Shown piece by piece: positions 5,533 to 44,658 of a stretch of DNA of 64,000 nucleotides (its first letter is position 1; each line of letters begins with the position of its first letter). Source of the DNA: a virus; IMG/VR virus record IMGVR_UViG_3300046008_000478, positions 1 to 64,000 of that record. One strand, given 5' to 3'. Both the position numbers and the translations under genes were made by a program. A model generated the notes under the pieces. That model had not been told where the DNA came from. It saw nothing but the letters and a program-made list of their open reading frames with translations, and searched no databases.

Positions 5533-6331
5533 TTGGATCTCCTTGTGATGCCCAGTCGCTTGCGACTTTGCGGTTGTTTTGCTCCAGGGTCTCTTGCTTG
5601 TTCGGGTGGCTGCGCTGTCCAGAGCCGTGCTGGCAGGCCGCCTTGAGGTATTCCTTGGCATCGGCAGGCTGAGCAGATACGGCGGCTGCAACAGCCACTG
5701 TGACGATCTCAATGCCGTAGTCCTTCACCAGCTTGCCCATGAATGTTCGGCACTGCGCCTTGGGGCATCCGCCGTTTTCCAGAACGGATACCGCGGCTTT
5801 CCAGAGATCAGCCTTGGCAAGGTCTTCCTGGGATTTTTCAGGCGGCCCGTCTTCTGGGTCAAACGAGCCGCCGCCGGCGTCAGTACCTTCAGGTACTGAA
5901 TTACTCTTCTCTTCTCTTCTCTTCTCTTCTCTAGGTAACGATCCGCTAACGGTGCCAGCGTTACCTGTTGCGTTAGGCTTTGCGTTACCTTTGTGCTTTG
6001 CAACCCTTTTTGCCGTCAAAGCGCGGTCTTTTGCGGTTTGTCCGTTGTGCCGATCAAAGTTTGGAAGAGAGATGCCGTCATCGGTAACGATGATCCATGC
6101 AACTTTTTGCATTGCATTGATGAATCCGCTAACGCCAACGATACGGTCTAGTAACGCCGGGGTAACGCTGGGAGCGTTACCATCAATCGTTTGCTGGTCA
6201 AACCAGCGCCATAGCCTGAACAGCTTTCCAACAGTTGTGTCTGGGTCATCCCATCCCATGTGGGCTGTGATCGCGAGTACCTCCGCCTTTTCTGGGGTGG
6301 ATATTTCAAGCTTGAGCCAGTCTCCAGCCAT
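5519..6331 (-). CDS. Phage replication initiator protein
   Basis: MAGDWLKLE...GKLFRLWRWFDQ...NFDRHNG..AKDRA N-terminus; REEKRREEK linker. Confidence 0.8.
   Translation of the reverse strand: MAGDWLKLEISTPEKAEVLAITAHMGWDDPDTTVGKLFRLWRWFDQQTIDGNAPSVTPALLDRIVGVSGFINAMQKVAWIIVTDDGISLPNFDRHNGQTAKDRALTAKRVAKHKGNAKPNATGNAGTVSGSLPREEKRREEKSNSVPEGTDAGGGSFDPEDGPPEKSQEDLAKADLWKAAVSVLENGGCPKAQCRTFMGKLVKDYGIEIVTVAVAAAVSAQPADAKEYLKAACQHGSGQRSHPNKQETLEQNNRKVASDWASQGDPNAEQ
5904..6181. repeat. Putative replication origin inside initiator gene
   Basis: About seven GTAACG/CGTTAC copies (5934, 5958, 5982, 6083, 6151, 6161, 6174), ATCCGCTAACG twice (5941, 6124), (CTCTT)n tract 5904-5932. Confidence 0.5.
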
Positions 6332-15060: not shown

Positions 15061-15645
15061 ATGAGTGAGCCAATGACCATGGGGGAGCGCTATCTGAGCG
15101 CCACCCAGTCCAGCAACCTGCGCACCGAGGCTGATAGGACGACAGACGCCGATAAGTTATTGGCTGCTGCCTACGCAGTGGCCGGCGACAAGCGGCGCGA
15201 CCTGGCACTGAGGGTGTGGAGATTGAAGGCTGGAGACATGCGCGGCTGCCACCAAGTGGCGGATGACATGGGAGCGATGCTGCGCAAGTCAATGATGGGC
15301 CGCAATGGCGGGTATCTGCGAGGGTTTAAGCCTGGATGCATAGCGTCCATCGAGGCGCGCGACCTGGCGCTGATGGTTTTGAAATGGTGGGCCTACCCAA
15401 CGTGCCCGGCATGCCATGGGCGAGGTGGCCCGCTGATACCAGGCACCCCGGTGCTGGATGAGTCGATGGAGTGCGGCCCTTGCGGTGGCACTGGGCAGGT
15501 TCCGCTGGAGCGGCTGTTCAAGGCCACTGAGGTGGATGCTGCCAAGTGGTTGGTTTCGGAGTTGGAAGGATTGAGCGCTGTGATCTTTGGGGATATGGCG
15601 CGGATCTTGGCTCCACGGATGGATTTGAATTTAACTAAGGAATGA
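15061..15645 (+). CDS. Probable late antitermination protein (Q-like)
   Basis: CPACHGRG...CGPCGGTG zinc finger; position before late region. Confidence 0.65.
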   Translation: MSEPMTMGERYLSATQSSNLRTEADRTTDADKLLAAAYAVAGDKRRDLALRVWRLKAGDMRGCHQVADDMGAMLRKSMMGRNGGYLRGFKPGCIASIEARDLALMVLKWWAYPTCPACHGRGGPLIPGTPVLDESMECGPCGGTGQVPLERLFKATEVDAAKWLVSELEGLSAVIFGDMARILAPRMDLNLTKE

Positions 15646-15646
15646 C

Positions 15647-15946
15647 ATGAGTAGATTTGGTTTATCACGCGAAGAACTTTTGAAAATGCTGGGCGCCTCA
15701 ATTGCCACGGAGCAAGTAAAGCCGCAGGCAGCTGGCCAATCCAGTCAGGAAGCACAACCCCAAGGTGAGTGCGAATGCGAGCAGTGCCAAGCCAATGTGT
15801 TGGACATTGCGCTGGCCGGGGCTTTGGATGAGGCGACTGAAGAGCAACTGATTGGACTGATGTCCAAGGCCTTGATGTTCATGGCCAAGGACGCCGGATG
15901 GACTGAGACAAGCGTTGCAGCCCACGCAATCTGGCTGGAAAGTTAA
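15647..15946 (+). CDS. Hypothetical protein
   Basis: TAAGGA RBS. Confidence 0.55.
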   Translation: MSRFGLSREELLKMLGASIATEQVKPQAAGQSSQEAQPQGECECEQCQANVLDIALAGALDEATEEQLIGLMSKALMFMAKDAGWTETSVAAHAIWLES

Positions 15947-16140
15947 CAGCCCTCATAACTGTCACTGCATGACAGCCACCCAGGGCTAAATGGGTGGGAC
16001 CCTTTAACTGCCGCCGGCGCGGGTATGTAGAGCCGGCACCTCTCTGAAAGCATTGCGTGCAGTGTTTCCAGAGTGGGGCTTTTTCACTTGCTTTTTGTGT
16101 GACTCAAACCCGGAGTATGGCGTTGAAAAATTCCACCGGA

Positions 16141-16552
16141 ACGCAGAGCAAAGCAGGCGTGACTCAGAACACGGTCAAACAACTGAGCGTTTTAAGGCGG
16201 TACTGACGATACAGCTAGGTGTCCCCTGGACCTAAACAGGCGCGTTACCAAAGGCGATATGTAGGTGAGAGCTTCGGCTCCGACCGGGTGAAAGGCCCGG
16301 ACCTTCAAGTATGGATCTGGTGTTGCACAAGTAAAACTGTTGCGGCTGAAGTTCCGGGTCCATTCTTGATGGTGTGCCGAAAGGCTGGGGCGAAGTTATA
16401 TAGCTCGTATCGCGTTTACTGCCCGAGATACCCGTGTAACCCACGACCGAGAGATACGCCGGGCGCAAGTGTGGGGACGCCATCAACCTATCCGCCAGTT
16501 CGCTGGCTACGCAGAAAGGGAACGCGCCTACTGCTTACGGTTTTGCTTGCGT
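16141..16552 (+). ncRNA. Putative large structured ncRNA (~410 nt)
   Basis: Nested long-range helices 16141-54/16540-52, 16238-46/16521-29, 16311-20/16354-63, 16366-75/16477-86; UUCG and GNRA-capped hairpins; no credible ORF. Confidence 0.65.
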
Positions 16553-16572
16553 GACGCCGACCAGAGGTCGGG

Positions 16573-16725
16573 CCATTACATAAGCGGCGGCGTTGAAGGA
16601 AACGCTACCGAGGAAACGAATCCTCTTCAGCGCTGAAGGCGAGGGGTAGGGATTGCAGGGGGCATTGTTTCAGACGCATGCCGCAATGCAAAGCCGGAAT
16701 CAAGCCCGGCCCGCTTATGTGATGG
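16573..16725 (+). ncRNA. tRNA-like structured element
   Basis: 15-bp closing stem, D-like arm GCGTT-GAAGGA-AACGC, T-like arm GCCGG-AATCAAGC-CCGGC. Confidence 0.55.
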
Positions 16726-16987
16726 TGGTTGCGAAAGCATGCGGATTAGTCCAGCCCTGGCCAGGACCCATCTGACATTCGGGAAAGACCGGGGATATCA
16801 AGCGAGCCGCCTGGCTGCTTCGGACATTGGGATCTGATCCCTGGACCGGCTCAGGCGACTAGACGGCTCACTTGATATTTTGGAGTGGATATGAAACTTT
16901 ATTGGCAGTCGCCGCTTTACTTCTGGCGCCCGGGGCTCTACCTGAAGATGGGCAATCGCCGCATTCGTTTATTCGCATGGCATTGAA

Positions 16988-17233
16988 ATGATCACCAAAG
17001 CACCACCACCAGCCACCGAGGTCCACGACCTGAAGCAGCGCATCCACAGCCTGACCATGGCCGCGCGCCAGGCAGAGGCCTCGATTGCAGAGCTCAAGAC
17101 GAATGCCCGCCGCTACATGCATGTGCGCCGCCTGAATGTGCGCCAGTTCTCGGATTTGTACGTCGCCAATCTGAATGGCAAGGGTCCGTTTGATGCGCTG
17201 GTGGATCGTGAAATTACAAAGGCTAGGTCATGA
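16988..17233 (+). CDS. Hypothetical protein
   Basis: Contains NARRY motif; operon context. Confidence 0.55.
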   Translation: MITKAPPPATEVHDLKQRIHSLTMAARQAEASIAELKTNARRYMHVRRLNVRQFSDLYVANLNGKGPFDALVDREITKARS

Positions 17234-19050: not shown

Positions 19051-19636
19051 TGGGGCGCTGGCCCTGGTGGGGTTGGGCCGGATGGCTGACATGGTGGCTT
19101 GGACAAAGCTGATGCGATCGCGGGTGGCAAGGCTGACCGAGCAGCGCGACGCCTTCGAGGAAAAGGCCTATGACCTCCATTTCCGCTGCGAGCACAGCAA
19201 GGAAGTCATGAAGGCGGAGTGCGAGATGGCCATGCAGGCTGCGCGCGACATGCATCTCCAGACCCTGGATAGCCTCCGGATCCATGCGACCTCAGAGATG
19301 CTGCGAATCCATAATGAGTACGCCAAGCGCGGGTTGGACAAGCGGTCCATGGATGTGCAGGCGGCCGTGCAGCTGGAGATGGATGGTCTCCGGGTGGACC
19401 TGGAGCGGGAGCTGGCGGAGCACAGGGCGTCAAATGATCGAGTGAAGATCAAGCTGCTGGAGACCGAGAAGAGCTACAGCCAGCTCCGGGAGTCCTATCA
19501 AACAGCGCGCAAGAAGGCTGACATGCTTGAGGCGCGAGAGGGGTCTTGGCAGAAACTGCACGGGGAAGCGGTGCGAGAGCGCAATACAGCAATGAGCGCC
19601 CTGGAAAATAGTTTGAAAAATACTGCAAATACTTGA
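19034..19636 (+). CDS. Coiled-coil hypothetical protein
   Basis: GGAG RBS; helical composition. Confidence 0.55.
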   Translation: MMKFIDGALALVGLGRMADMVAWTKLMRSRVARLTEQRDAFEEKAYDLHFRCEHSKEVMKAECEMAMQAARDMHLQTLDSLRIHATSEMLRIHNEYAKRGLDKRSMDVQAAVQLEMDGLRVDLERELAEHRASNDRVKIKLLETEKSYSQLRESYQTARKKADMLEAREGSWQKLHGEAVRERNTAMSALENSLKNTANT

Positions 19637-19734
19637 CACAAATCTTTTGCGCACCGTTATATTCAATGCAGCAATAAAGCCGGAGAGACACCACCGGCAC
19701 AACAAATAGCGGCACCTTTGATGGAAAGCCGCCT
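19633..19734 (+). promoter_or_regulatory. Late promoter 1 with conserved leader hairpin
   Basis: TTGACA-19nt-TATATT, then 45-nt element repeated at 44086. Confidence 0.65.
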
Positions 19735-19745
19735 TTGAAATTTAT

Positions 19746-20305
19746 TGCTGTCCATCCGCATGGTATTCACAAGATGCCAGCCGAATGGGTAGCTCAACCG
19801 GTAGAGCAGCTGAGGAAACTTGGCCTGTTGCGGGATCGTACCCCGCTCCATTGGTCGGTCGTCAAGGGGAGTTGCAGGAAACTGTAATACGACACCCACC
19901 GGGTTGCTTAAAACGCATATCCGGCCACTCTGGGCCTAGACCGGGCGGTTAGATCCGACCAGCAGCACCCCTGAAAGCGGGGAGCACCAATTTCGACTCT
20001 GGAGATACCGCCTACAGCCGGTGAAAGTCCCGGCAATCAGAGTCAGTCAGTTTGGGTTAAGCGCAAAGGATGCCGCCGTAAAGGAGGTCACACTGGCGCA
20101 GGGTTGGGGTCACCCGGCCGCCCGAAGACATTTACCCAGTGCTGCAGCATGTGGGTGGACGAGCCGCCATCGTAAGGGCGGAGTAGGGGCCGACAGTCGA
20201 AACTTGAACTTAACAGATGCCAGCTTGGGGCATGGTCGGAAACACAAGACGCGCAGGGGGTAGCCCTGACAAACATCTGGGTGTAAGCCCCGGAGCCAAA
20301 TACCA
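19746..20305 (+). ncRNA. Cluster of tRNA-mimicking ncRNAs
   Basis: Cloverleaf 19781-19858 with GAAA tetraloop in place of anticodon; T-arm-like hairpins followed by ACCA at 19986-89 and 20302-05. Confidence 0.6.
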
Positions 20306-20333
20306 AAAGCCACCCTAACCCGGTGGCTTTTTT
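20305..20333 (+). terminator. Intrinsic terminator closing ncRNA cluster
   Basis: AAAAGCCACC-loop-GGTGGCTTTTTT. Confidence 0.8.
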
Positions 20334-20427
20334 GTTTCAGCCGTCCGTAGAGTAGTCCAACCACTTTGTGATCACACAAGGGACTTGATCTCGGGCGGCG
20401 ATTTTTCTCCCTGGTCGCAAGACCTTT

Positions 20428-20452
20428 GCCTCGCTGCACGCGGGGCTTTTTT
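20428..20452 (+). terminator. Second intrinsic terminator upstream of packaging genes
   Basis: GCCTCGC-TGCAC-GCGGGGC-T6. Confidence 0.6.
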
Positions 20453-20463
20453 ACATCTGAACC

Positions 20464-20670
20464 ATGAACATCACACAAACTTGGGAGGAGCTTGGCGTCA
20501 AGCGCCCAGAGCGAGGTGATCACCCACACATGGATCCGCGCCAGGCAGCCGAAGAGTCAATGAAGAACTGCAGAGCATTGATTGTGGATTTGATCCACGC
20601 CGGGCGACTTCCTGCTCCTCCAATGGGCAAGAGCTACATCCCAGGAGCAGACGGGGTGAGGCTGGCATGA
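20464..20670 (+). CDS. Hypothetical protein
   Basis: ATGA-coupled to terS. Confidence 0.55.
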   Translation: MNITQTWEELGVKRPERGDHPHMDPRQAAEESMKNCRALIVDLIHAGRLPAPPMGKSYIPGADGVRLA

Positions 20671-44050: not shown

Positions 44051-44130
44051 GTGACGGAATTCACTCGTCACTGATAGAATGGTTCCAGCAACAAAGCGGG
44101 ACAGACAGCCCCCGCAAAACAAATAGCGGC
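44051..44130 (+). promoter_or_regulatory. Late promoter 2 with conserved leader hairpin
   Basis: GTGACG-18nt-TAGAAT (extended TG), 45-nt element 38/45 identical to 19669-19713. Confidence 0.65.
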
Positions 44131-44170: not shown

Positions 44171-44201
44171 AAGCCGCCTGGTTCTCAGTGCGGCTTTTTT
44201 T
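44171..44201 (+). terminator. Intrinsic terminator in leader of ejection-protein operon
   Basis: AAGCCGC-loop-GCGGC-T7. Confidence 0.75.
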
Positions 44202-44235
44202 GCATTTGCAATTAGCAAAGCGCCATGCAAATCAC

Positions 44236-44658
44236 ATGCTGAACTATCAATTCGACCCGGTATTTTCGTTTGTTCAATCGCGCATTCCAGGACTGGTGAG
44301 ATCGCCAGGCATGTCCGCTATTGGCCTTGAGCGCAATGGATCGATTGTTGCTGGCGCAGTCTACGAGGGCTTCAACGGGAAGAACATGTGGGTTCACCTT
44401 GCAGGCTTGCCTGGTCGGTCCTGGTTGAATCGCGAGTTTCTGCATGCTGGGTTCTGCTACCCATTTATTCAATGCGGAGTCCAGCGACTGAGTGGCTATG
44501 TGAACGCCAGTAACACTGAGGCTAGGCGCTTTGATGAGCACGTCGGCTTCCGCGAGGAGGCGCGTTTGCGTGGCGCAGCCCCCGATGGTGGCGATGTGAT
44601 TATTTATGTGATGCAAAAAGAGGATTGCCAGTTTCTCGGCAAGGTAAAAATATGTTAA
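44236..44658 (+). CDS. GNAT-fold acetyltransferase-like virion morphogenesis protein
   Basis: F.YPF.Q.GV.RL...V.A.N..A.RF..H.GF..E..LR. Confidence 0.8.
   Translation: MLNYQFDPVFSFVQSRIPGLVRSPGMSAIGLERNGSIVAGAVYEGFNGKNMWVHLAGLPGRSWLNREFLHAGFCYPFIQCGVQRLSGYVNASNTEARRFDEHVGFREEARLRGAAPDGGDVIIYVMQKEDCQFLGKVKIC

Follow-up and report, generated by a model that had tools for sequence, protein, structure and literature searches.

In the tRNA-like structures of plant viruses of the TYMV/TMV type, the acceptor arm is a pseudoknot whose strands run in the order S1a-S2a-S1b-S2b, with a T-loop-like loop and with NCCA following directly as the physical 3' terminus, one that can be charged with an amino acid. 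RNAs other than tRNAs may also be co-transcribed with tRNAs or with tRNA-like folds, as is the case for the stable RNAs (species 1 and 2) of the T4 tRNA cluster, for 't-elements' and for mascRNA-type signals, whose ends are all generated by RNase P or RNase Z. Structured phage RNAs next to tRNA islands are, moreover, a kind already known from GOLLD and ROOL, both of which occur in phages near such islands, with tRNAs sometimes lying within the GOLLD linker (bioRxiv 10.1101/2024.12.08.627333). The RNA described here resembles GOLLD and ROOL (RF01998, RF03087) in being encoded by phages and prophages, in having many helices and a pseudoknot, and in lying beside or around tRNA genes (same-strand tRNAs or tRNA-like calls are found within about 530 nt of its conserved motif in seven of 20 independent loci), but it shows no match to either in sequence or structure, its conserved core is only 57 nt long, and short forms of it exist. 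The hosts also differ, being of Burkholderiales type for the motif, in contrast to the Firmicutes, rumen or marine settings of GOLLD and ROOL.

The window, by which we mean the whole stretch of DNA analysed, is the first 64 kb of a 79-kb phage record in IMG/VR. The phage is lambdoid and temperate, with hosts of Comamonadaceae type; its genes include those for a YqaJ exonuclease, ERF and a CI-type HTH and S24 repressor, which, like terS/terL, belong to the flanks of the block, and VRR-NUC and HNH genes of the nin type are also present. The RNA block lies in a gap of 830 nt, which separates the end of a 242-aa ORF (19636) from a 68-aa ORF (20464), and downstream of it are terS (20667) and terL (21274), identified by PHROGs matches at 9.9e-55 and 2.2e-29, respectively. 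Within this gap, an ORF-poor stretch of about 670 nt has a promoter-like site on its 5' side and two terminators on its 3' side, upstream of terS/terL. The promoter-like site (TTGACA-N19-TATATT, 19633–19663, plus strand) overlaps the stop codon of the 242-aa ORF and was recognised by eye; a consensus promoter scan called none at 19633–19663, because the spacer there is 19 nt, and a related phage locus, L005 (loci are referred to here by such numbers), has TTCACA-N18-TATATT at the equivalent place. Both terminators are on the plus strand and were called by terminator scan, at 20305–20331 and 20428–20446: the first (taken here as 20305–20337), also found by our own scan, has a 10-bp stem and a T run, and the second (taken as 20428–20452) precedes the 68-aa ORF and terS/terL. 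We conclude that 19633–20337 is a single promoter-to-terminator noncoding RNA gene cluster, its promoter being putative, and that the cluster was inserted in this phage, in the manner of a 'moron', where the lysis and packaging genes meet. A coding role for the block was dropped, as seven ORFs can be drawn in the gap and not one has a PHROG match. A BLAST search of 50,697 phage records found no match to the block.

An earlier note on this DNA had seen here a row of tandem RNA units between a promoter and a terminator, and had read them as a polycistronic precursor cut by host tRNA-processing enzymes into RNAs with tRNA-like ends, of tmRNA- or Y-RNA-like architecture. Every string that it quoted is present where it had placed it. 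As a whole, its observations are confirmed in part and its interpretation is supported in part; the placement between promoter and terminator is upheld by the scan at the terminator end, and the promoter is seen by eye only. The proposed architecture found no echo in ARAGORN or Rfam. ARAGORN detected no tRNA and no tmRNA in the window, apart from spurious permuted tmRNA calls when the threshold was lowered to 70%, and the Rfam scan that the note had put forward as a check (Rfam 15) gave nothing at gathering score and nothing relevant at E<=10, i.e. no tRNA, tmRNA, Y RNA, GOLLD or ROOL, the E<=10 runs having covered 19500–20500, 15900–17050 and the locus L232.

At the presumed start of the transcript is an element (19668–19749, plus strand) in which an 11-bp closing helix, formed by 19668–19678 and 19739–19749, surrounds two hairpins joined by ACAACAAAUA. 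It is more stable than expected from its composition (MFE z = -4.5; none of 200 shuffles was as stable), it matches L005 at 1921–1997 in an nhmmer search (the L005 element itself spanning about 1915–2000), and between the two sequences the closing helix shows four compensatory pairs. The element is a candidate for a shared regulatory leader. The TGCT that had been paired with AGCA to give unit 1 an acceptor stem belongs to this closing helix, which covaries in L005, and that stem is accordingly abandoned. A partial second copy of the leader (84% over 45 nt) is present at 44086–44130, after a promoter-like site, before a terminator and upstream of a GNAT 'moron' gene (44188–44658).

Judged by folding energy alone, units 1 and 3 and the cloverleaf discussed below are no better than shuffles (MFE z-scores of -1.0, -0.3 and -0.35; unit 2 reaches -2.4), and the leader alone, at -4.5, stands out. 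It is because of comparative evidence, and not of folding energy, that the 3' end of unit 3 stands out beyond chance. On such evidence it contains a motif of about 57 nt, consisting of a hairpin A (3–5 bp) directly 5' of ACAA, then a T-loop-like hairpin B (6 bp, with a loop that begins UGNAA) pseudoknotted through that loop to the linker, and then GAGCCA. The first relatives were reached through terS homologues, namely L005 (terS 64% identical), L085/L006 (57%) and L141. L005, L085, L141 and the window share hairpin A, ACAAGCCAUC, the hairpin B loop UGNAAGGCC and GAGCCAA; among the 160 loci of the terS-guided search (IMG/VR and metagenomes), the RNA was found only in these three closest relatives. 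Two degenerate patterns led to further copies in IMG/VR (L214, L218, L219, L226–L229, L231–L235, L238 and L240) and in GTDB prophages of Curvibacter lanceolatus (L211) and Delftia sp. PS-11 (L213), and a model search of 151 genomes from the same family as these hosts added the prophage L223. In all there are at least 21 motif copies, in phage or prophage DNA, i.e. about 20 phages besides that of the window, and a covariance model built from just three sequences recovered all the other copies, at E values of 1e-7 to 1e-26. Below, R1 denotes the first motif model and R2 the model from 21 sequences.

In the 21-sequence alignment, 97.6% of the cells are paired, and the covariation that the earlier note had proposed as a check proved strong for the family to which the 3' end of unit 3 belongs, with eight of 13 pairs changed on both sides. 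Family-wide covariation extends to all four pairs of hairpin A. The observed values were not attained on any measure in 500 shuffles, and sliding the register in any way lowers pairing to 20–57%; RNAalifold independently gives the same two hairpins. Three bases before the hairpin B stem covary with three that follow UGNAA in its loop (GCC/GGC, CGC/GCG twice, CGC/GUG, CCC/GGG and GCU/GGC), and this pairing is kept in 19 of the 21 family members (as 2 bp in L223), L240 being a further partial case; the motif is an H-type pseudoknot. There are 17 G-U against one A-C among the motif pairs, an excess that assigns the RNA to the plus strand and speaks against a signal at the DNA level. ACAA, UG.AAG and GAGCCA are nearly invariant, and conservation falls to noise right after GCCA; across loci it is only the 57-nt motif that is conserved, the flanking domains not being alignable. 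The motif is uncatalogued as far as Rfam goes; a separate catalogue from 2023 lists some 10,000 candidate phage RNAs (PMC10690425).

Several other candidates were discarded. The 15-mer GTTTGGGTTAAGCGC has 45 matches in IMG/VR, all but L085 attributable to chance and those in L126 and L093 being coding; chance or coding matches to the pattern or model also account for L210 (an archaeal MAG), L212, L224, L225 and L236. The idea of GGAGCCAA as an sRNA seed was dropped because its complement occurs at chance frequency in the window, and that of a cos location at contig ends because the positions are inconsistent between L214 and L217.

The window's own copy of the motif (20251–20305, plus strand) is bona fide, scoring 47.3 bits (E 1.2e-10) with R2 and 29.6 bits with R1, and is the only match when R2 is run over the whole 79-kb phage. 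Hairpin A lies at 20254–20268 (CAGGG/CCCUG) and is followed by the linker ACAAACA (20269–75) and by hairpin B, in which 20276–81 pairs with 20289–94 around the loop UGUAAGC; the pseudoknot triplet has been lost from this copy, the linker having ACA and the loop GC. This is the end that had been described as CUGGG-UGUAAGC-CCCGG-AGCCAAAU-ACCA (20277–20305), and it is present as such, as is GUUUGG at 20050–20055. The ACCA at 20302–20305, with which that description ends, is not conserved, conservation falling instead on GCCA at 20295–20298. The body of unit 3 (20050–20250, plus strand) starts with 15 nt, GUUUGGGUUAAGCGC, that are identical in L085, where they come right after a tRNA-Gly (BLAST finds a 16-nt exact match, E 0.009), and the rest of the body is poorly conserved. 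The internal helices GTTAAG/CTTAAC and CACTGG/CCAGTG do exist, but at a level expected by chance in 257 nt, and they are not retained in L085, the one relative of unit 3. There is no support for the notion of two units of about 250 nt, each closed by an acceptor-like stem. A 9-mer box, GAUGCCAGC, is found at 19773–19781 and again in the unit 3 body at 20216–20224, at the starts of the unit-1 and unit-3 terminal domains; GAUGCCAGC recurs in L005 at about 2084, and L213 has GACGCCAGC.

The end of unit 1 (19942–19996, plus strand) is, at best, a diverged copy of the motif. It has a hairpin A (19946–19957, loop UUAGAU) and a 7-bp stem (19965–71/19979–85) with the loop UGAAAGC; a possible 2-bp pseudoknot joins the GC of this loop to GC at 19962–63, and ACCA follows at 19986–19989; CCCC/UGAAAGC/GGGG and then AGC-ACCA are present over 19968–19989, as had been claimed. 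It is matched by R1 at 14.3 bits (E 0.057) and gives no match to R2 at E<=10. What speaks for it is the like layout of its fold and its synteny with the canonical copies in L005 and L085, with which it has CCACUCUGG, UAG.CCGGG and the UUAGAU loop in common. Upstream of it, 19782–19856 (plus strand) is read here as a tRNA relic: the acceptor, D and T arms are those of a tRNA, with a canonical D-arm sequence, but the anticodon arm has a 6-bp stem and a GAAA-type, 6-nt loop with no usable anticodon, the T loop (AUCGUAC) is aberrant, and no CCA follows. ARAGORN called 19782–19856 only at the 90% threshold, as 'tRNA-???' with a 6-nt anticodon loop; there was no call at the default threshold, and no Rfam tRNA match at E<=10. 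The equivalent place in L005 has no pseudo-tRNA, and a search of IMG/VR with the exact D-arm 24-mer found nothing.

Between the two motif-like ends is unit 2 (19995–20044, plus strand), a 7-bp outer helix (GACUCUG...CAGAGUC) enclosing a T-loop-type hairpin, GCCGG-UGAAAGUC-CCGGC, just as previously described; its partial match to R2 (7.5 bits, E 5) is not significant. In L085 the same slot holds two real tRNAs, placed between the motif and the unit-3-like GUUUGGGUUAAGCGC: the first starts 4 nt after the motif, and the tRNA-Gly ends 1–2 nt before GUUUGGGUUAAGCGC. The proposal that this is a site where related phages keep tRNAs is supported, and with it a tRNA-type punctuation of the precursor becomes plausible. 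Overall, the evidence supports the view of the block as noncoding, plus-strand and RNA-like, and as located where related phages keep tRNAs.

How might such a cluster be used? The reading that we favour, though we hold it tentatively, combines tRNA-type processing of a precursor with a role for the pseudoknot and RCCA as a protected, acceptor-like 3' domain. Transcription would begin at the cluster's own promoter and also reach the cluster as late read-through, and the precursor would be cut by the host's tRNA-maturation machinery, with RNase P acting at the pseudo-tRNA, at the unit-2 slot or, in relatives, at real tRNAs, and with 3' trimming next. The products would be small stable RNAs of roughly 60–250 nt with the pseudoknot and then RCCA as their 3' domain, in the strand order of the acceptor pseudoknot of plant-virus tRNA-like structures, and this domain may block 3' exonucleases and offer an end of CCA type to some partner, either from the host or from the phage. 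The neighbourhood of the motif is in keeping with this: in the Curvibacter prophage L211, a tRNA-Tyr starts 1 nt past the end of the motif model, and in L141, L226 and L228 there are tRNAs within 200 nt of the motif, always on the same strand. With the plant-virus structures the motif shares the strand order, the GCCA directly after it and the T-loop-like loop, but it has a 5-nt UGNAA between the stems, its S1 is only 3 bp long, and in the DNA the sequence of the RNA continues past the CCA. The likeness to T4 species 1 and 2, t-elements and mascRNA is one of co-transcription with tRNA-like folds; there is no sequence relation, and processing here is putative.

Against this reading we count that neither the pseudo-tRNA nor unit 2 is scored as a tRNA by Rfam, that the pseudoknot is lost in unit 3 and the unit 1 copy fails R2, that the promoter is one seen by eye, that units 1 and 3 fold no more stably than their shuffles, and that the CCA is paired downstream in a third of the family. 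In these seven of 21 loci, the tail that starts with CCA pairs with a complement some 50–100 nt downstream, ending in UUGG or AUGG, to give duplexes of -13 to -23 kcal/mol. In the window such pairing is weak, and involves the unit-1 tail with the outer helix of unit 2 and, in unit 3, the tail CCAAAU with the 5' GUUUGG of 20050–55. In L214, L231 and L238, an ORF starts 5–16 nt past the modelled motif, i.e. 12–26 nt past GCCA. From the paired CCA and these close ORFs it follows that a free CCA end is not universal.

The main rival, which we think rather unlikely, sees in the motif a leader element of the put or nut kind that acts in cis on the packaging operon. It would bind RNA polymerase, or else a factor of host or phage origin, and would govern either elongation through terminators or the stability or translation of packaging-gene mRNA, the tRNAs merely sharing the leader. 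The orientation of the motif is always that of the neighbouring downstream genes; it lies upstream of terS in seven loci (the window, L005, L085, L141, L219, L235 and L240), with terS being of several unrelated types, between terL and the portal gene in L227 and L231, before small ORFs in L214 and L238, and, in L233, upstream of an HTH/replication-O module, a nutR-like place. Its unpaired nucleotides are invariant, as in sites bound by proteins or polymerase, and L211 and L218 have a zinc-finger 'Q-like' ORF directly upstream of it; on the other hand, no homologue of the window's Q-like protein occurs in other motif loci. Terminators tell in both directions. They were detected within 700 nt downstream of the motif in eight of the 21 loci, preceding terS in the window, L214 and L219, and lying as little as 6–9 nt after the motif in L213, L218, L219 and unit 3 of the window (in L005 and L218, the first terminator after the motif was recognised by eye); in 13 of the 21, however, none was detected, and in L211 and L085 a tRNA comes immediately after the motif. 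Furthermore, the element that is repeated at a second promoter-terminator pair of this phage is the leader at 19668–19749, not the motif. HK022 put, the lambda nut sites and the lambda 6S leader have in common with the motif a two-hairpin form and a promoter-proximal position in the leader of a lambdoid operon, upstream of terminators, but differ from it in sequence and in fold, the motif being pseudoknotted, and many motif copies have no downstream terminator.

It seems improbable that the block belongs to a large RNA with several domains, comparable to GOLLD or ROOL, some 0.65 kb folding, and perhaps multimerising, as one, with tRNAs or their relics in a linker between 5' and 3' domains. Its size and phage origin would fit, as would the many hairpins and the pseudoknot, the position of the L085 tRNAs between unit-1-like and unit-3-like domains, the >1 kb of noncoding RNA-like sequence with T-arm relics in L232, and the location of the known examples near tRNA islands (bioRxiv 10.1101/2024.12.08.627333). 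Nevertheless, the GOLLD and ROOL covariance models found no match in the window or L232, either at gathering score or at E<=10, the 57-nt motif alone is conserved between flanks that cannot be aligned, and in L219 and L214 there are short forms of only about 100–130 nt.

We see little likelihood, too, in the motif being a riboswitch, i.e. an aptamer for a small molecule, or a ribozyme that cleaves itself. Its compact pseudoknot and the invariance of its junction nucleotides might suggest either, some loci have a terminator or ribosome-binding site after the motif in the manner of an expression platform, and RNA-unit boundaries, where the motif is found, are often the sites of phage ribozymes; but no alternative pairing with the terminators is shared between loci, several loci have a tRNA or a long helix directly after the motif, and there was no match to any known ribozyme or riboswitch model. 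Nor do we give more than a slim chance to the block being a tRNA island in decay that itself serves no function, its hairpins mere relics, even though the broken anticodon loop of the pseudo-tRNA, the position of unit 2 at a tRNA slot, the degraded motif copy of unit 1, the missing pseudoknot pairing in unit 3 and the unremarkable folding energies could all be taken in that sense: the motif is not tRNA-like in sequence, and its compensatory changes across 21 loci with different terminase types require selection on the RNA. Finally, an RNA resembling tmRNA or Y RNA, or a cos/pac packaging signal at the DNA level, for which the T-loop-like hairpins, the CCA and the position just upstream of terS might speak, is essentially excluded, given that neither ARAGORN (tmRNA) nor Rfam (tmRNA, Y RNA) finds one, that the 5' and 3' ends form no acceptor stem, that no Pfam family of a Ro-like partner (the TROVE, or Ro60, domain) is present among the 20 ORFs scanned, which cover the late genes only partly, and, as to cos/pac, that the G-U bias is strand-specific, the pseudoknot covaries and some copies are away from terS.

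If processing of the tRNA type does yield RNAs that end in the pseudoknot and GCCA, a more specific idea, to which we attach only a small probability, is that temperate phages in this way make a free end that mimics the acceptor end of a tRNA. Such a mimic would engage a factor that recognises CCA ends, for example as a decoy for host defence enzymes by which tRNA 3' ends are modified or cut, or alternatively let RNase P, the ribosome or the CCA-adding enzyme take hold of the RNA, and would be a counterpart, among bacterial viruses, of the tRNA-like ends of plant viruses; phage tRNA islands would thereby be tied to host processes directed at tRNA. Should the motif instead mark RNA ends or control packaging genes, it would represent a new RNA-level control in lambdoid late transcription. 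In either case a compact motif with strong covariation and a clear pseudoknot is added to the many structured phage RNAs near tRNA genes. These ideas are directly testable, because two cultured lysogens carry the motif: Curvibacter lanceolatus ATCC 14669, at 5976–6032 of L211, and Delftia sp. PS-11.

We also draw attention to some features elsewhere in the phage and in the related loci. The 'Q-like' ORF of the window (15061–15645) encodes 194 aa with two DnaJ-type CxxCxGxG zinc-finger motifs and has no Pfam or PHROG match. The ORFs with similar fingers directly upstream of the motif RNA in L211 and L218 were not detected as its homologues by tblastn, and a link between the motif and the Q-like protein was dropped, since no homologue occurs in other motif-bearing loci. 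After this ORF comes a second noncoding structured region of about 1 kb (16000–17000), with no Rfam match, in which a hairpin at 16284–16300 is of exactly the same type as the motif's hairpin B and scores 16.4 bits (E 0.02) with R2; it has the same loop type as the unit-2 hairpin, and neither is significant as a motif copy.

In L232, more than 1 kb around the motif (1–1050) is noncoding and contains tRNA-like T arms, and 930–1046 gives a weak match of Cobalamin-riboswitch type (14.8 bits, E 0.32); a likeness of the GGUGAAAGUCC hairpins to the cobalamin riboswitch was dropped, this 14.8-bit match in L232 being the only one. A second conserved RNA-like block (CGCUGGGG..GCGCACUC..GAGUGAGU..CCCAGCGC..CCCRAUGGGUG), not found in the window, comes after the motif RNA in L005 (about 2340–2480) and L085 (about 650–775), and is seen in L213 and L218 after the first terminator. 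L085 also has, at 116–187, a tRNA with the anticodon CAU that ARAGORN missed at its default setting and Rfam scored at 44.6 bits, and whose T loop, AGCGACU, is unusual.
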